Of a stretch of DNA of 64,000 bases, positions 54,524 to 61,729 are shown piece after piece. The DNA lies in contig CAYYZO010000002.1 of the NCBI GenBank assembly GCA_964476185.1, positions 25,116 through 89,115 of the forward strand, given 5' to 3'. The position numbers were made by a program, and so were the translations under genes. This DNA comes from an uncultured Myxococcales bacterium. GTDB taxonomy: Bacteria > Desulfobacterota > Binatia > UBA1149 > CAITLU01. The notes under the pieces are model-generated. The model was given only the letters and a program-made list of their open reading frames with translations, did no database searches and was not told where the DNA came from. Positions within the stretch are counted from its first letter, which is position 1. Each line of letters opens with the position of its first letter.

Positions 54524-56662
54524 GTGAACGTCCAGGACCTCATCACCCGGATCAAGGAGTACGATCCCGGCGCCGACACCGCGCTGGTCGGCGAGGCCTA
54601 CCGGTTCGCGGCGAGCATGCACGAGGGGCAGCGCCGCGCGTCGGGGGAGGCCTACGTGACCCATCCGCTGGCGGTCGCGTCGATCATCGCCGAGATGCGC
54701 CTCGACGTGCCGACGGTCGTGACGGGCCTCCTGCACGACGCGGTCGAGGACACCTCCGCGACCCTCGAGGACATCCGCGGGGGGTTCGGCGCCGAGGTCG
54801 CTTCCCTCGTCGACGGCGTCACGAAGATCACCCGGCTCGAGTCGCAGCCGTACGAGACGACGCAGGCCGAGAACCTTCGCAAGATGCTCGTCGCGAGCGC
54901 CAGGGACGTGCGCGTGCTGCTCGTCAAGCTCGCCGACCGCACCCACAACATCCGCACGCTGCAGCACCTCGCCGAGGCCAAGCGCGCGCGCATCGCTTCC
55001 GAGACGCTCGACCTCTACGCGCCGCTCGCGAACCGGCTCGGCATCAACTGGATCAAGCAGGAGCTCGAGGACCAGTCCTTCCGCATCCTGCACCCCGACC
55101 GCTACGAGGAGATCCGCGAGCGCCTGTCGCTGCAGAAGCTCGAGCGGGAAGGCTACGTGAAGGAGGCGAGCGGGCTGATCGCCAAGCGGCTCGAGGCCGC
55201 CGGCATCGAGGCGGCGGTCACCGGCCGCACCAAGGGCGCCTACTCGATCTGGAAGAAGATGAGCGACCAGGGCCTGCGCATCGACGACGTCTACGACGTG
55301 GTCGGGTTCCGCGCCCTCGTCGGGAACGACCGCGAGTGCTACGAGGCGCTCGGCGTGATGCACATGTACTGGAGCCCGGTGCCGGGGCGGTTCCGCGACT
55401 ACGTCGCGCTGCCGAAGGCCAACGGCTACCAGTCGCTGCACACGACGCTGATCGGGGTCTACGGCGAGCGGCTGGAACTGCAGGTCCGCACGCACGACAT
55501 GCACAGCGTGGCGGAGTACGGCGTCGCGGCGCACTGGCGCTACAAGAGCGCCAACGACACGGAGCAGACCGAGTCGGAGCGCTACGCCTGGCTCAAGCAG
55601 ATCCTCGAGTGGCAGCAGCACTTCGACGACCCGCGCGAGTTCCTGTCGTCGATCAAGGACGACCTGTTCGGCGAGGACGTCTACGTCTTCACCCCGAAGG
55701 GCGAGAGCCTGACGTTCCGCAAGGGCGACACCGCGCTCGACTTCGCCTACCGCATCCACTCCGAGGTCGGCAACCACGCCGCCGGCGCGCGCGTGAACGG
55801 CAAGGTCGTCCCGCTTCGCTACGTGATGCAGCAGGGCGACACCGTCGAGGTCGTCACGACCGAGAACGGCATGCCGTCGCGCGACTGGCTGAAGTTCGTG
55901 CGCTCGCCGCGGGCCCGCGAGCGCATCGTCTCGTTCATCCGCGCCGAGGAGCGCAAGAAGGCCGTCGCGCTCGGGCGCGAGCTGCTCGAGCGCGACCTCG
56001 GCCTCTACGACCTCGACATCGCGACGCTGCAGTCGGACGACCGCTTCGAGCGCGTGTTGACGCAGTTCGCCCGCAAGGACGAGGAGGCGCTGCTCGAGGC
56101 CGTCGGCTACGGCCGCGTCACGGGCAAGCAGGTGCTGTCGTTCCTGCTGCCCGACGAGACGATCGAGCTCGAGCGGCCGCGCCGCAGCCTGCGCACGCTG
56201 TTCGGGCTGCTCGGGCGCACGCCTCGCCCGCTCGTCATGGCGCAGAACCTCGACCCGGCGATGGTGCGCTTCGCGAAGTGCTGCGAGCCGCTGGCCGGCG
56301 AGGACATCGTCGGCTTCCTGACGCGCGGCCGGGGAGTGACCGTGCATTCGAAGGCGTGCCCGCGCCTGGCCGACGCCGAGCGCGAGCGCCTGGTCTCGGT
56401 GAGCTGGCAGAAGGGCGCGTCCGCGCTGCGCCCGGTGCGCCTCGAGGTCGTCTCGCGCGACCGGCCGCGCCTGCTCGCCGACATGACGCAGGCGATCGCC
56501 GCGGCCAGCGTCAACATCGAGCGCGCGCACGTTCGCACGATCGGCACGAAGGCGATGAACACGTTCGAGGTCACGCTCTCGAGCGTCGAGGACCTCGGCC
56601 GCGTGATGCGCAACCTGCGCCGGCTGGCCGGCGTGAAGGAAGTCCGGCGCGTGATCGGCTAG
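54524..56662 (+). CDS. spoT: Bifunctional (p)ppGpp synthetase/hydrolase SpoT/RelA (HD, synthetase, TGS, ACT)
   Basis: HD motif (HPLAVASIIAEMRLD...LHDAVEDT), synthetase domain, TGS domain and a C-terminal ACT domain. GTG start. Confidence 0.95.
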   Translation: MNVQDLITRIKEYDPGADTALVGEAYRFAASMHEGQRRASGEAYVTHPLAVASIIAEMRLDVPTVVTGLLHDAVEDTSATLEDIRGGFGAEVASLVDGVTKITRLESQPYETTQAENLRKMLVASARDVRVLLVKLADRTHNIRTLQHLAEAKRARIASETLDLYAPLANRLGINWIKQELEDQSFRILHPDRYEEIRERLSLQKLEREGYVKEASGLIAKRLEAAGIEAAVTGRTKGAYSIWKKMSDQGLRIDDVYDVVGFRALVGNDRECYEALGVMHMYWSPVPGRFRDYVALPKANGYQSLHTTLIGVYGERLELQVRTHDMHSVAEYGVAAHWRYKSANDTEQTESERYAWLKQILEWQQHFDDPREFLSSIKDDLFGEDVYVFTPKGESLTFRKGDTALDFAYRIHSEVGNHAAGARVNGKVVPLRYVMQQGDTVEVVTTENGMPSRDWLKFVRSPRARERIVSFIRAEERKKAVALGRELLERDLGLYDLDIATLQSDDRFERVLTQFARKDEEALLEAVGYGRVTGKQVLSFLLPDETIELERPRRSLRTLFGLLGRTPRPLVMAQNLDPAMVRFAKCCEPLAGEDIVGFLTRGRGVTVHSKACPRLADAERERLVSVSWQKGASALRPVRLEVVSRDRPRLLADMTQAIAAASVNIERAHVRTIGTKAMNTFEVTLSSVEDLGRVMRNLRRLAGVKEVRRVIG

Positions 56663-56811
56663 GGCGGGTCTGCGCGGGAACGGGGAACCCGCGAGTCCCG
56701 ACGGCCGCTTGCCGTGCGGACGCGGATTTCAGGAGCACGGGGTCTCGCCGCTCCCGGAGTCGCCCGGGCAGCGTGGTGTTCTCGAACGAAGCGACGATGG
56801 AGCAGGGGATC

Positions 56812-57195
56812 ATGGCAAAGCAGGTCGTATCGACGGATCGGGCGCCGGGCGCCATCGGACCGTACTCCCAGGCGATCCTCGCAGGCGGGACGCTCTGGTG
56901 CAGCGGGCAGATCGGGCTCGATCCGGCCACCGGCCGGCTCGCGCCGGACGGCTTCGAGGCCGAAGCGCGGCAGGTGCTGCGCAACCTCGAGGCGGTGGTG
57001 GCGGCGGCGGGGATGACGATGGGCGACGTCGTCCGCCTGACGGTCTACCTCGTGGACCTCGGCGATTTCCCGAAGCTGAACGAGATCTTCGCCGAGACGC
57101 TCCCGCCGCCGTATCCGGCGCGCGCGACCGTGCAGGTGGCGGCGCTCCCGCGAAGCGCCCGGGTCGAGATCGACCTCGTCGCGACGAAGTCGTAG
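56812..57195 (+). CDS. ridA: RidA/YjgF-family reactive intermediate deaminase
   Basis: 127 aa. APGAIGPYSQA...RATVQVAALPRSARVEIDLVA. Confidence 0.9.
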   Translation: MAKQVVSTDRAPGAIGPYSQAILAGGTLWCSGQIGLDPATGRLAPDGFEAEARQVLRNLEAVVAAAGMTMGDVVRLTVYLVDLGDFPKLNEIFAETLPPPYPARATVQVAALPRSARVEIDLVATKS

Positions 57196-57223
57196 AGCTT
57201 GCCGCGAGGCCGGGCGCACGGCG

Positions 57224-57245
57224 TTGTGGCGGCGCGCGTTGCGCC
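57224..57245. terminator. GC hairpin (GTGGCG-N10-CGCCAC) between convergent ridA and the MerR-like gene
   Basis: Inverted repeat seen directly in the sequence. Lies within a short-repeat (CGTCGGCGTGCG x2) low-complexity convergent intergenic region. No U-tract. Confidence 0.35.
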
Positions 57246-57320
57246 ACTGCGTTGCCCGGCGTGCGATGCGTCGGCGTGCGCGTCGGCGTGCGTTGCGCCG
57301 CAGCGTCGCCCGGCGTGCGT

Positions 57321-58199
57321 TCAGCCAAGTGCGGCGACCAGGCCGCGCGCGAACGCCTGCATCTCCCGCATGCTTGACAGGAGTTCCACGCCGACCGGCG
57401 CGGACGACGGGGAGAGTCCCCGGCCTCCCGCCACGATCCGGCCGCGAAACGCGGCGCCCGCGTGTTCGCGGGCGGGGGCTTGCGCGAGCAGGCGCACCAG
57501 CTCGACGACTTCGTCTCCGCCGATGCTCGCCGTGTGCCAGACGAGGACCGGGTCGTACTCGCGCACGGCGAGGACTTTCGTCGCGAGCGGAGTTCGCGGG
57601 CCGAGGTTCACGTCGCGAAAGCCGATCTCGGCCAGCGAGGCGGCGCACATCAGGCTCGGCAGCAGGTAGGGATCCTCCGGCCCCGCGGAGCCGACGGCGA
57701 CGGGCGCGCCGTCGGCCGCCGGCGGCAGCGCGGCGCGCATCGTGCCGAGCGCGTGCAGGCAGGTGTCGGTCGCCCGATGCTCGACGAGGATGCCCTTCTC
57801 GTCGTGCTGCCAGATCTCGCCGATGGTCTCGAGGGCGGCGCGGATCGGGCCGTCGCAGAGCGACGCGATCGATTCGCCGCCGAGGAACGCGGACAGGAGC
57901 AGGCTGAGGGAGCGACGCTGGTCGTCCGCCAGGAAGGCTCCGTGCAGCGCGGCGGCCCGAACCGGTTCGGAAAGGGAGGCGTCGTCCGTTCGCACGTCGA
58001 CGAGCGAGAGCAGGTCGGGGCGCGCCGGGACGGTGCAGCGCGAGCGGGCGAAGCGGAGCACCTCGGTGCGGTCGATGCGGCGATGGCCGCCCGCCGTGAG
58101 CCGGGCGGCCAGCTCCCCGTTGTCGACCCATCGTTTGACCGACGATTCGCTGACCCCGAGGGCGTCGGCGACTTCGCGGGGACTCAGAAGCGATTGCAC
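57321..58199 (-). CDS. MerR-family transcriptional regulator with C-terminal B12-binding-like domain (LitR/CarH/CarA-like)
   Basis: N-terminal MerR helix-turn-helix ([26 protein letters not shown]). C-terminal Rossmann-like B12-binding-domain-like region, but the canonical DxHxxG His is replaced (EDPYLLPS). GTG start 6 nt after AAGGAA. Confidence 0.65.
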
Positions 58200-58210
58200 G
58201 ATTCCTTGAT

Positions 58211-58224
58211 GAACGATTTGGACG
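58211..58224. promoter_or_regulatory. Operator-like 14-mer GAACGATTTGGACG, copy 1 (in the 5' leader of the MerR-like gene)
   Basis: Direct repeat of the 14-mer at 58364-58377 with one mismatch. Internal GAACG-N4-G[GA]ACG sub-repeats. Confidence 0.4.
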
Positions 58225-58363
58225 AAACAATCAACCGGGTCATGCGGCCCGCTTGGGGGGCTCGGGCGGAGGATTAGCCGGAGTGTTCGGAGAAAAAATG
58301 TGGAAAAATGGGTCCGGGTCCGGTTGCCCGATCGCCTGGAAGCAGGTAGTGGAGAACACGACT

Positions 58364-58377
58364 GAACGATTTGAACG
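58364..58377. promoter_or_regulatory. Operator-like 14-mer GAACGATTTGAACG, copy 2 (about 20 nt upstream of the folE start)
   Basis: See copy 1. Located just upstream of the folE RBS GGAGG. Confidence 0.4.
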
Positions 58378-58399
58378 TTTAAAGACTGGAGGTACCCCC

Positions 58400-59068
58400 A
58401 TGACCATTGCCGCCGAACCGTGCCGCGTGAACGTCCAGACAGCGCCCCCGCTGTCCGAACCGAACCTTCGCGTGGCCTCGCCCTCCGAATCCCCGGTCGA
58501 CCTCGGGCGCATCGAGCGGGCCGTACGCGAGATCCTCGCGGCGGTCGGCGAGGACCCGGACCGGGAAGGACTCCTCGAGACCCCGGCGCGGGTCGCCCGG
58601 GCCTATGCCGAGTTGCTGTCGGGCCTGCGGGACGACGCAGGCCGGCATCTCTCCCGCGTCTTCGGGCACGAGTCGCCGGGCGACGACCTCGTCGTCGTGC
58701 GCGACATCGACTTCCAGAGCATGTGCGAGCACCATCTGCTGCCGTTCCGCGGCAAGGCGCACGTCGCGTACCTGCCGGCGGACGGCAAGGTGGTGGGCCT
58801 CAGCAAGATCGCGCGCACCGTCGACGTGTTCGCGCGCCGCCCGCAGCTGCAGGAGAGGCTGACGGCGAACGTCGCCGACGCCATCGCCGAGCACCTCGGC
58901 GCGCGCGGCGTCGCCGTCGTGGTCACGGCCGAGCACCTCTGCATGCAGCTGCGCGGCGCGCGCAAGCAGCAGGCGGACATGGTCACGAGCGCGTTCCGGG
59001 GCGCGCTCGCCGACGACGAGGCGCTGCATCGCCGCGCGATGCTGCTGTTGTCGGGGGCTTCGTTCTGA
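58400..59068 (+). CDS. folE: GTP cyclohydrolase I FolE
   Basis: Core FolE ([31 protein letters not shown]...RPQLQERLT). Confidence 0.9.
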
Positions 59069-59161
59069 TGGCGCGGCGACCAGCCGACGGGGCGGCCCGG
59101 CGCCCGTTCGCGTGCGGGAACCCGGCGGTCCGCGACCGTCGAGATTTCGGGAGGTGAAGAG

Positions 59162-59734
59162 ATGAGGACGATTCGATGTTCCGCTCCGTTCGCCGTCGTC
59201 GCGGCGCTCGTGGCGACGCTGGCCGGCGCCTCCGGCGCGCGCGCGGACCTGCTCGCCGCAGGCGCCGCGTTCCCCGCCTGGGAACTGCCGGACCAGGCTT
59301 CGACGACGGTTCGATCGCAGGATCTCGCCGGCAAGACGTACCTGCTCTGGTTCTATCCGAAGGCCCGAACGCCGGGCTGCACGCGCGAAGCCCAGGCGCT
59401 TCGCGACGAGCACGCGAAGCTCGTCGCCGCCGGAGTGACCGTCCTCGGCGTGTCGTTCGACGCTCCCGAGGCGAACGCCGAGTTCGTGCTGGAGGAATCG
59501 CTGCCGTTCCGGCTGCTCTCGGACCGGGAGCGCACGCTCGCGGTCGCCGTCGGCGCGGCGTCGTCGAAGTCCGCGTTCTTCGCGAAGCGGATCTCGTATC
59601 TCGTCGGTCCCGACGCAACGGTCCGAAAGGCCTACGCCGACGTGGACCCGGCCACGCACGCCGCCGAGGTGCTCGCCGACGTGGCGGGTCCGGCGGCCGC
59701 GCCCGCAGCGGTGGAGCACGACGATGCGCACTGA
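59162..59734 (+). CDS. bcp: Peroxiredoxin Bcp-type (thiol peroxidase) with signal peptide
   Basis: Peroxidatic Cys motif YPKARTPGCT and thioredoxin fold. N-terminal signal peptide, so probably periplasmic. RBS GGGAGG. Confidence 0.85.
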   Translation: MRTIRCSAPFAVVAALVATLAGASGARADLLAAGAAFPAWELPDQASTTVRSQDLAGKTYLLWFYPKARTPGCTREAQALRDEHAKLVAAGVTVLGVSFDAPEANAEFVLEESLPFRLLSDRERTLAVAVGAASSKSAFFAKRISYLVGPDATVRKAYADVDPATHAAEVLADVAGPAAAPAAVEHDDAH

Positions 59735-60275
59735 CGGCCTGGACCGCCTGATGTCGTGCGCGCTCGCGGCGGCGCTCGCCGGCCTGGTCGGTTGCTCCGC
59801 TTCGCGACCGCCGATGCCGGTCGTGAAGCACGTCGACCTCGAACGCTTCATGGGAGACTGGTACGTGATCGCGAACATCCCGACGTCGTTCGAGGAGGGG
59901 GCGCACAATGCCGTGGAGTCGTACCGCCTCGACGACGACGGCTCGATCGCGACGACGTTCACGTTCCGGGCGGGAGCCTTCGACGGCGAGGCGAAGCGCT
60001 TCGAGCCGCGCGGGTTCGTCCTCGACCGGGAGACCAACGCGCTTTGGGGCATGCAGTTCGTCTGGCCCGTCCGGGCCGACTACCGCATCGTCCACCTCGC
60101 GAGCGACTACTCGCGCACGATCGTCGCGCGTCGCAAGCGCGACTTCGTCTGGATCATGGCGCGCACGCCGCAGATCCCCGACGCGGACCTCGAGGAACTC
60201 GTGCGCCGCGCCGGGGAACTCGGATACGACACGTCGCGGATCCGGAAAGTGCCGCAACGGTGGCCGGCGCCATGA
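59724..60275 (+). CDS. blc: Bacterial lipocalin Blc (outer-membrane lipoprotein)
   Basis: Lipobox LVGCSAS and the lipocalin SCR1 motif (FMGDWYVIANIP). Confidence 0.85.
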   Translation: MRTDGLDRLMSCALAAALAGLVGCSASRPPMPVVKHVDLERFMGDWYVIANIPTSFEEGAHNAVESYRLDDDGSIATTFTFRAGAFDGEAKRFEPRGFVLDRETNALWGMQFVWPVRADYRIVHLASDYSRTIVARRKRDFVWIMARTPQIPDADLEELVRRAGELGYDTSRIRKVPQRWPAP

Positions 60276-61729
60276 GCCAGCGCGTCGCGGTGCTCGGCGC
60301 GAGCGGTTACGTCGGCGGCCGCCTGCTGCGGCCGCTGCTGGAGGCCGGCTACGGCGTCCGGGCGATCGGAAGGCGCCCCGAGTTCCTGGTCGAGCGGGTG
60401 CCGGAAGGAGTGGAGGTCCGGCGCGGCGACGCGCTCGACCTCGCCTCGCTCGTCGAAGCGCTCGAAGGCTGCGATGCGGCGTTCTACCTGGTCCACTCGA
60501 TGGGGTCGCACGGGAGCTTCGAGGACGAAGACCGCGCGGCCGCGTCGAACTTCGTGGCGGCCGCCGCCGCGGCCGGCCTGAAGCGCGTCGTCTACCTCGG
60601 CGGGCTCGGCGACGACGCCAGCGAACTGTCGAGCCACCTGCGCAGCCGGCACGAGACCGGCCGCATCCTGCGCAGCGGCCCCGTGCCGGTCATCGAACTG
60701 CGCGCGTCGATCGTGATCGGATCCGGCAGCCTTTCGTTCGAGATGGTGCGCACGCTGACCGAGCGGCTGCCGGTGATGATCACGCCGCGCTGGGTGCGCG
60801 TCCCGGCCCAGCCCATCGCAATCGAGGATCTCGTCGCGTACCTGCTGGCCTCGCTGCGCCTGCCGGACGATCGCAGCCGCGTGTTCGAGATCGGCGGCGC
60901 CGACGTCGTCTCGTACGGCGGCGTGATGAGCGAGTACGCGCGCCAGCGCGGGCTGCGACGCCTGATGCTACCGTTCCCGTTCCTGACGCCGTGGCTGTCG
61001 AGCCTGTGGCTCGGCTTCGTGACGCCGCTCTACGCGCGCATCGGCCGCAAGCTCGTCGAGAGCATCGTCCATCCCACCGTGGTCCGCGACGACTCGGCGC
61101 GGCGCGAGTTCCCGGAGATCCGGCCGATCGGTTGCCGCGAAGCGGTCTCCCGCGCGCTCTCGAACGAAGACGAGGAAGTCGCCGAGACGCGCTGGTCGGA
61201 CGCCCTGTCGGCGGCGGGCCGGGCGGCGGACTGGGGAGGCACCCGCTTCGGCAACCGGCTCGTCGATTCGCGGACCTCGTTCGTCGGCGTCCCGCCTTCG
61301 GCGGCGTTCGAACCGGTCCGCTGCATCGGCGGCGCCAACGGCTGGTACTACGCGGACCTGCTGTGGCGGATCCGCGGCGTGATCGACCTCTGGGTGGGAG
61401 GAGTGGGCCTGCGCCGCGGTCGTCGCCACGCCGAGAACCTGAGGGTCGGGGATGCGCTCGACTGGTGGCGGGTCGAGGCCTTCGAGCCGGATCGCCGGCT
61501 CCGGCTCGTCGCCGAGATGAAGCTGCCGGGGCGCGCCTGGCTCGAGTTCGACGTCGAGCCGGCCCACGGGGGCAGCATCCTGCGGCAGACGGCGATCTTC
61601 GATCCGGCGGGGCTCGCCGGGCTGCTCTACTGGTACGCGGTCTACCCGCTGCACGCGATGATCTTCCGCGGCATGCTGGCCTCGATCGCCGAACGGGCGA
61701 GGAACGCCCACCGCGGGATCGACGGCTAG
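60272..61729 (+). CDS. Fusion: NAD(P)H-binding SDR/NmrA-like domain plus DUF2867 domain protein
   Basis: N-terminal VAVLGASGYVGGRLL Rossmann segment. A C-terminal roughly 150 aa resembles DUF2867. ATG overlaps the blc TGA (ATGA). Confidence 0.7.
   Translation: MSQRVAVLGASGYVGGRLLRPLLEAGYGVRAIGRRPEFLVERVPEGVEVRRGDALDLASLVEALEGCDAAFYLVHSMGSHGSFEDEDRAAASNFVAAAAAAGLKRVVYLGGLGDDASELSSHLRSRHETGRILRSGPVPVIELRASIVIGSGSLSFEMVRTLTERLPVMITPRWVRVPAQPIAIEDLVAYLLASLRLPDDRSRVFEIGGADVVSYGGVMSEYARQRGLRRLMLPFPFLTPWLSSLWLGFVTPLYARIGRKLVESIVHPTVVRDDSARREFPEIRPIGCREAVSRALSNEDEEVAETRWSDALSAAGRAADWGGTRFGNRLVDSRTSFVGVPPSAAFEPVRCIGGANGWYYADLLWRIRGVIDLWVGGVGLRRGRRHAENLRVGDALDWWRVEAFEPDRRLRLVAEMKLPGRAWLEFDVEPAHGGSILRQTAIFDPAGLAGLLYWYAVYPLHAMIFRGMLASIAERARNAHRGIDG

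Follow-up and report, generated by a model that had tools for sequence, protein, structure and literature searches.

What does a transcription factor with the sensor fold of the B12 photoreceptors respond to when the histidine that should ligate the cobalt is absent, and which DNA does it bind? This question is raised by a stretch of DNA from an uncultured Myxococcales bacterium (contig CAYYZO010000002.1; hereafter the window, meaning all 64,000 nucleotides that were analyzed), in which a regulator gene on the minus strand (57321-58199) and the GTP cyclohydrolase I gene folE on the plus strand (58400-59068) diverge from a region that carries a pair of direct repeats. An earlier reading of the locus, made without database searches (the original prediction), took the regulator for a LitR/CarH-like MerR protein with a degenerate B12-binding domain and the repeats for its operators. 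Both genes are as it described them: the regulator open reading frame (ORF) encodes 292 residues from a GTG start, and the 222-residue FolE matches Pfam GTP_cyclohydroI (PF01227, 1.1e-71) and NCBIfam FolE (1e-77). The regulator itself now looks different. We describe a conserved regulator-operator system in which a BldC-type DNA-binding domain is joined to a CarH/CtMerR-type sensor that has tyrosine in place of the cobalt-ligating histidine.

The MerR helix-turn-helix of the original prediction is not borne out by domain searches. Pfam places HTH_17 over residues 4-54 (7.9e-13; 58038-58190, minus strand), whereas the MerR and MerR_1 models both score below their cut-offs (25.1 bits versus 28.2 and 21.1 versus 21.6, respectively). 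In NCBIfam, this winged helix-turn-helix (wHTH) matches excise (3e-10) and HTH_BldC (5.6e-10); its HTH_BldC score of 38.9 bits lies below the subfamily cut-off of 77, so the domain is a relative of BldC rather than a BldC orthologue. A PDB search aligned the wHTH to the BldC-DNA complexes 6AMA/6AMK. BldC assembles into head-to-tail multimers on tandem 9-bp direct repeats of the form AATTxxxx(C), with Arg30 of the recognition helix reading a C-G pair and His46 of the wing lying in the AT-rich minor groove (PMC5859096). Of 264 family members, 262 conserve the corresponding DNA-reading Arg (KRW, in the recognition helix SESSVKRW) and wing His (GGHRR), and Trp24, His39 and Arg40 are each kept in the same number. 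The recognition helix of CarH carries RxWERRY and serves 11-bp repeats of the form nnnnTnnACAn (PMC9304148); the regulator has no such helix. Its DNA-binding domain is of the BldC/excisionase type (HTH_17) and not a classical MerR domain.

The two 14-mers that the original prediction had located are present on the plus strand, and each can be extended to 15 nt. The extended copies, TGAACGATTTGGACG (58210-58224) and TGAACGATTTGAACG (58363-58377), agree at 14 of 15 positions and lie 153 bp apart, start to start. Sharing a strand, they are therefore oppositely oriented relative to the regulator and folE. Their spacing had been taken for the length of the divergent region, which is in fact 200 bp (58200-58399), since the regulator ORF borders it at 58199 and folE begins at 58400. 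The search for further copies of the 14-mer that had been proposed as a check, run on the window, returned four matches with up to two mismatches (0.63 expected), these two being the only exact ones. We also scanned the window with a weight matrix, 19 nt wide, that was based on homologous loci. The putative regulator-proximal operator (58210-58228, minus-strand GTTT-CGTCC-AAAT-CGTTC-A) consists of two 9-bp units, scores 31.1 bits and ends 10 nt before the start codon; its folE-proximal counterpart (58363-58381, minus-strand TAAA-CGTTC-AAAT-CGTTC-A), likewise of two 9-bp units, scores 38.3 bits and lies 10 nt 5' of the folE Shine-Dalgarno sequence GGAGG (58388-58392). The next-best match in the window reaches 9.4 bits and the best of 30 shuffles 15.1 bits; neither the mismatch search nor the matrix scan found a further copy above background in the 64 kb.

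The same two sites recur in the same places at five homologous loci (L001-L005) with regulators that share 57-81% identity with that of the window. On the regulator strand these sites follow the pattern CGTYCA-AWT-CGTYCA, and in an alignment of the five intergenic regions the invariant blocks are these sites, a TTG and the start codons, and no others. The distance from the regulator-proximal site to the start codon is exactly 10 nt in all five relatives.

A wider comparison covered 82 non-redundant loci from species-representative genomes of Myxococcota, Planctomycetota/Phycisphaerae, Gemmatimonadota, Acidobacteriota and Binatia, with regulators 38-60% identical to that of the window; the nearest genomes carrying homologues are uncultured Myxococcota-like metagenome-assembled genomes (57-60% identity). 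At least one site with no more than two mismatches was found within 300 bp upstream of the regulator at 50 of the 82 loci. The 24.3 kb upstream of the regulators hold 64 sites and the remaining 489 kb hold three, a density difference of about 430-fold, which speaks against the repeat being a common k-mer without positional bias. Polarity is nearly fixed, with 60 of the 64 upstream sites on the regulator strand, and successive CGTYCA hexamers are spaced by exactly 9 bp in 42 cases, forming arrays of two to five units in 9-bp register depending on the locus. The longest array lies upstream of the regulator at 2831-2872 of L052, with five units in perfect register; arrays of three units are present in L038, L049, L055, L065 and L069. 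Columns outside the search pattern add AAAT ahead of the first unit and, more weakly, a third unit; the repeating unit is therefore AAATCGTTC, with a variant, AATTCGTTC, in L003-L005. At 2860-2900 of L024 and L025, a variant operator with CATCCA cores, again in 9-bp register (AAATCATCCAAACCATCCAACAATCATA), separates the regulator from a divergent photolyase gene.

The repeats are thus very likely operators, because they are conserved across phyla, and in this the original prediction stands; its assignment of them to the CarH/LitR type does not, since the putative sites share a 9-bp period, a BldC-like unit pattern and a fixed polarity rather than the 11-bp nnnnTnnACAn repeat of CarH. The motif accompanies the regulator whichever gene is divergent from it, and the regulator is for that reason by far the likeliest binder. 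We are confident, on these comparisons, that the regulator binds the 9-bp repeats and controls both itself and folE.

Turning to the sensor, the original prediction of a CarH/LitR-like B12-type C-terminus is supported by structure comparison. The AlphaFold2 model, built from a 23-sequence alignment, has a mean predicted local distance difference test score of 92.9, with helices over residues 78-156 and alternating strands and helices over 167-273. In a Foldseek search, its top matches are Thermus thermophilus CarH (TtCarH; 5c8d/e/f), CtMerR (8jbs/8jbt, template modelling score 0.75-0.77) and LitR (3whp). Matches to 8jbs were found with the single sequence (phmmer, 8.5e-20, residues 3-261) and with the family profile (8.4e-40, residues 2-261), and the profile also matches cobalamin domains of methionine synthase (MetH), MttC, LitR and CarH. 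In the four-helix bundle, a W-x9-E-H motif (W130...E140-H141; 57777-57812, minus strand) corresponds to W156, E166 and H167 of CtMerR and is conserved at 257, 263 and 264 of 264 members, respectively; in CarH this motif caps the adenosyl group. The Rossmann-type B12-binding-like subdomain that follows (residues ~165-275; 57375-57707, minus strand) contains GxxxP (G200...P204), S/T225 and G258-G259.

The position of the cobalt ligand is where this protein departs from its relatives. Tyr178 aligns with His204 of CtMerR (GDLHEIA) and with the His of the MetH DxHxxG motif (GDvHdiG), in agreement with the claim that the ligand histidine is replaced. The segment at 57657-57674 (minus strand) reads D176-P-Y178-L-L-P181 at the place of the D/ExHxxG/P motif, and the layout of the classic pattern D/ExHx2G/P-x41-SxT/V-x22-27-GG is otherwise kept: D176 and, in the G/P position, P181 are followed by S/T at 223 and 225 and by G258-G259. 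The degenerate motif seen earlier (EDPYLL) is therefore real but does not represent decay: D-P-Y-x-x-P is a conserved family hallmark, and one-off loss of the histidine is ruled out by Tyr in 245 of 264 members. The remainder have His (8), Ser (5), Phe (2), Gly (2), Thr (1) or Ala (1). These members (P0080, P0083, P0140, P0203, P0206 and others) are scattered among the Tyr proteins, and P0080, with Phe, is 86% identical to Tyr proteins. We read this as a residue that lies under the ligand and matters, although a specific bond would be dispensable. A profile search of 1.84 billion representatives returned 941 clusters (50% identity) at E up to 1e-30.

The light-response signature of cobalamin-binding domains (CBDs) comprises GxxW, EH, GxxH and GxxxP (PMC11796333). 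Three of these elements are found here (GEIW, EH and G200-P-R-T-P204); at the place of GxxH the window protein has E-D-P-Y and the family mostly G-D-P-Y, so that the signature rejects the family because of GxxH alone. Conservation of the adenosyl-capping Wx9EH and of the nucleotide-tail motifs argues that a corrinoid is still bound, base-off and His-off. The base-on ligand use suggested by the original prediction is less likely, given that the base-off tail-pocket motifs SxS/T and GG are conserved. His132, two residues past the Trp, is kept in 197 of 264 members; it might ligate from the upper face, as does His132 of TtCarH, the residue immediately after the Trp there.

Where the operators lie relative to the promoters bears on how they might act. 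Read by eye, a putative folE promoter (58324-58352, plus strand) has a -35 element TTGCCC (58324-58329), a 17-nt spacer and a -10 element TAGTGG (58347-58352), and TTGC[ACG]G, 17 nt and TAnnnN occupy the same relative place in L001, L003, L004 and L005. The folE-proximal operator would then span about +4 to +19 in the window and overlie the transcription start in L003-L005. The putative regulator promoter (58206-58234, minus strand), also read by eye, has a -35 element TTGATT (58229-58234), whose TTG is invariant in the five-way alignment, a 17-nt spacer filled by the operator, and a -10 element CATCAA (58206-58211), with CAATAT, CATTAT and CAAAAT at the -10 place in L001, L003 and L004, respectively. 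A Shine-Dalgarno sequence is missing upstream of the regulator in four of the five relatives, and the predicted transcription start falls approximately at the start codon, so the leader of this mRNA is probably very short or absent. Each operator sits where a bound protein would block, as would suit a repressor acting also on its own gene. Just 5' of the putative folE -35 element, a pair of A-tracts (AAAAAA and AAAAA, some 11 nt apart; 58293-58308) stands out in a genome of 72% GC and could be an UP element or a bend; T or A tracts are also present in the intergenic regions of L001, L003 and L005. A riboswitch 5' of folE was considered and dropped, as Rfam gave no match (THF-II/folE motif, preQ1 or others) over 57000-59500 at E up to 10.

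Downstream of folE lie genes for a Bcp-like peroxiredoxin (AhpC-TSA; 59162-59734, Pfam 2.3e-28), a Blc-type bacterial lipocalin (59724-60275, Lipocalin_2 2.2e-39) and an NmrA-like NAD(P)-binding protein of the short-chain dehydrogenase/reductase (SDR) type with a C-terminal DUF2867 (60272-61729; DUF2867 2.8e-35, NAD_binding_10 1.4e-16), all on the plus strand. The folE-bcp gap of 93 bp, the 11-nt bcp/blc overlap (59724-59734) and the ATGA overlap of blc with the SDR-DUF2867 gene (60272-60275) suggest one operon, folE-bcp-blc-SDR, and the overlaps suggest translational coupling of its last three genes. Judged from the sequence by reading, Bcp has a signal-like N-terminal segment and Blc a lipobox-like LVGC, and both may be envelope proteins. 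The idea of a stress regulon formed by bcp, blc and the SDR gene holds poorly for the first two: both accompany folE in the closest relatives alone, with bcp beside folE only in L001, L002 and L004 and the bcp-blc order repeated in L001. Within 3 kb of the regulator at the 82 loci we counted folE at 23 (divergent from the regulator in most), SDR-DUF2867 at 15, fasciclin at 13, SDR-DUF1731(-SRPBCC) at 13, photolyase at 5 and CrtI-like genes at 5. By Pfam, the divergent gene at the 77 loci with a scanned upstream ORF is folE in 18, an extracytoplasmic function (ECF) sigma factor (Sigma70_r2/r4_2) in 9 and Methyltransf_4 in 5. Among the light-induced targets of Pseudomonas LitR are folE, in line with the original prediction, a photolyase and an SDR (PMC9758184), and by analogy the regulon context supports a photoprotective or photo-oxidative role. 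A partner photoreceptor or antirepressor encoded beside the regulator was dropped as a candidate when ORF clustering of 83 loci yielded no recurrent gene of either kind.

The regulator-folE module is an insertion among what are otherwise housekeeping genes. relA/spoT and ridA lie upstream of it in the window (54524-57195) and are syntenic in L001 (4716-8690) and L002, where gmk and yicC-like genes are found further upstream. The spacer between the convergent ridA (ending at 57195) and regulator (ending at 57321) genes holds three tandem copies of a GC-rich unit with a 27-bp period (57230-57319; CGGCG[CT]GCGTTGCGCC...GCCCGGCGTGCG).

We propose that the regulator is a one-component transcription factor in which a BldC/excisionase-type wHTH is fused to a CarH/CtMerR-type cobalamin sensor. 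The DNA-binding domains would line up head to tail on tandem 9-bp repeats (AAATCGTTC) and read them as BldC does, with the wing in the AT-rich part and the recognition-helix Arg at the conserved C-G pair. If CarH and CtMerR are a guide, the protein loaded with cofactor, holding its corrinoid without His, would oligomerize and repress in the dark. At the regulator-proximal operator it would cover the spacer and -10 element of its own promoter, leading to autoregulation; the folE-proximal operator would place it just downstream of the folE promoter, and the bound oligomer would block both promoters. Photolysis or loss of the bound corrinoid would release the protein and turn on folE-bcp-blc-SDR, supplying pterin and folate (for example as photolyase cofactor) together with envelope antioxidant functions. 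As a whole, this account of an autoregulated, cobalamin- and light-responsive repressor of the folE operon is one we hold to be somewhat probable; cobalamin-mediated light as the signal, judged by analogy, falls slightly short of even chances.

Several points weigh against this proposal. The whole case is computational, predicted from sequence and from a structural model. The cobalt-ligating His of every characterized CarH-type photoreceptor is absent, and Ser, Gly, Phe, Thr or Ala is tolerated at its position in 11 of 264 members, so a specific Tyr-cobalt bond cannot be essential. A CBD with Arg at the ligand position and without the light-response signature bound only hydroxocobalamin (OHCbl) and was light-independent (PMC11796333). 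Over residues 60-290, PF02607 (B12-binding_2) reaches only a sub-threshold 16.9 bits and PF02310 has no hit, and Rfam at gathering score found no B12 riboswitch or other family in the whole window. The link to light comes from the neighborhood, with photolyase or CrtI at 10 of 82 loci, and from analogy. A strict consensus promoter scan found none, which makes both promoters, with their footprints read by eye, tentative assignments, and terminator-like matches are at chance level. The upstream AAGGA and GTG start of the window regulator weaken the leaderless reading for this gene. Looping by a tetramer between the two sites is not supported, as site-to-site spacings of 84-173 bp in the relatives share no helical phase.

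The alternative that survives best keeps the same operators and repressor logic and denies that the sensor is a photoreceptor. The module could instead be a B12-independent oligomerization domain, as in Myxococcus CarA, with relief by an antirepressor or oxidative damage, or it could sense corrinoid availability, for example as OHCbl, and couple B12 status to the synthesis of folate and pterin. In line with the nutritional version, folE is the commonest target, and methionine synthase is a point at which the metabolism of folate joins that of B12. The missing histidine speaks for either version, as do CarA, which functions without B12 (PMC9304148), and the light-independent Arg-containing domain (PMC11796333); the bcp and ECF sigma neighbors would also suit a general response to oxidative stress. 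However, CarA has lost the Trp of Wx9EH (PMC9304148), and the family described here retains W, E and H almost invariantly, and with them GxxxP, SxS/T and GG, which is what would be expected if the adenosyl-capping pocket were still in use. The photolyase and CrtI neighbors point to light, and the clustering of 83 loci offers no recurrent antirepressor gene. We regard a non-photoreceptor as unlikely, yet deserving of serious weight.

B12-domain homologues that bind heme exist, the SCHIC domain of AppA among them. The module might by this precedent bind another tetrapyrrole, heme or protoporphyrin, and sense redox state, oxygen or photosensitizer load, with the invariant His141 or the frequent His132 (197/264) ligating iron. 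We find this improbable. The best fold matches are cobalamin proteins, the motifs that would hold a base-off cobalamin tail are conserved, and AppA-like CBDs fall among the decoys used in defining the GxxW/EH signature, not among the putative light-responsive CBDs (PMC11796333), whereas GxxW and EH are kept here.

A reversal of the regulatory sign, in which the ligand-bound protein would sit in a promoter spacer and remodel promoters as classical MerR proteins do, draws on the regulator-proximal site, which lies between the putative -35 and -10 elements in the classical MerR position. The putative spacers measure 17 nt, though, whereas MerR activators correct spacers that are over-long at 19-20 nt; the folE-proximal site lies 3' of the putative -10 element, over the transcription start, where a bound protein would block. 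The domain is of the BldC type and lacks the MerR coiled coil, and the relatives CarH and CtMerR have been described or proposed as repressors (PMC11796333, PMC9304148). Activation is therefore quite improbable. It is barely credible that the repeats serve some other factor or reflect chance or DNA structure: their operator role is predicted from sequence, and AT-rich DNA and A-tracts could be promoter elements where the genome has 72% GC, but sites concentrated 430-fold upstream of one regulator family in at least five phyla, with fixed strand polarity beside any divergent gene and a unit that fits the 9-bp consensus of the structurally characterized BldC domain (PMC5859096), speak strongly against it.

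B12 photoreceptors are at present recognized by their cobalt-ligating histidine, and both the light-response signature and PF02310 miss this family. It is conceivable, though we lean against it, that the 941 clusters in at least five phyla represent a large overlooked clade of cobalamin photoreceptors that hold the corrinoid base-off and without His; the Tyr beneath the corrin would then be bonded or no more than a cap. If so, this mode of binding would alter the color and photochemistry of the chromophore, searches that require His would overlook much B12-based light sensing, and the clade would provide the first case of BldC-type head-to-tail DNA binding in which a fused sensor gates assembly, along with a regulon that can be read and that comprises folE, photolyase, carotenoid, ECF sigma and SDR genes. 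Binding of an alkyl-cobalamin without His would widen the chemistry of cobalamin photoreception and probably its spectral range, and could supply new parts for optogenetics. If no such ligand is bound, a B12 photoreceptor scaffold would have been re-used for another signal with its adenosyl-capping pocket retained. Either way, the family offers a concrete candidate protein-operator pair, a BldC-type domain on 9-bp AAATCGTTC repeats, and a predicted regulon around GTP cyclohydrolase I in members, for the most part uncultured, of the Myxococcota, Planctomycetota, Gemmatimonadota and Acidobacteriota.

We found no paper on the family, the Tyr substitution or the operator, nor on HTH_17 with B12 or BldC with cobalamin, in a search that left subscription-only literature outside. 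The closest solved relative is CtMerR of Chloracidobacterium thermophilum (8JBS/8JBT), which shares full-length homology and the same domain order of an HTH_17-like N-terminus, a four-helix bundle and a Rossmann subdomain, together with GxxW, EH and GxxxP. CtMerR binds adenosylcobalamin as a tetramer in darkness and becomes a monomer after green light; its crystal structure has His204 for the lower axial ligand (PMC11796333). It differs in having that His where the window protein has Tyr178, at an identity of only about 25-30%, and its operator and regulon are not reported in PMC11796333. BldC of Streptomyces (6AMA/6AMK) provides the counterpart for the other half of the protein: its wHTH is homologous, with the DNA-contacting Arg and wing His kept, and its repeats likewise are 9 bp long, vary in unit number, begin AT-rich and have C at position 9 (AATTxxxxC versus AAATCGTTC or AATTCGTTC). 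BldC is, however, a stand-alone domain of 68 residues that has no sensor and oligomerizes through its wHTH on DNA, whereas the window protein, at 292 residues, carries a fused sensor module of about 230 residues that likely controls oligomerization.

The LitR proteins of classes II-V (Pseudomonas, Burkholderia, Vibrio and Micrococcales; PMC9758184) are comparable as LitR-type regulators that have no functional B12 site and yet mediate light induction. All of them have MerR-type N-termini; class II retains only the four-helix bundle and depends on an adjacent short LOV partner, and classes III-V have unrelated C-termini. The window protein, in contrast, keeps the whole CBD, including the Rossmann subdomain, behind a BldC-type N-terminus, and no recurrent partner gene emerged among the 83 loci. 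With CarH and class I LitR (Thermus thermophilus, Bacillus megaterium and Myxococcus xanthus) it shares the sensor fold, Wx9EH in the four-helix bundle, the layout D-x-[ligand]-x2-P ... S-x-S/T ... GG and tandem repeats that overlap promoters, and their photoprotective regulons resemble the one predicted here. CarH proteins have a MerR-type domain, 11-bp repeats and a His177 ligand, where the window protein has a BldC-type domain, 9-bp repeats and Tyr. By these three criteria, DNA-binding domain, His ligand and repeat length, the window regulator is outside the CarH family, although by analogy it most likely works like the CarH and CtMerR proteins.

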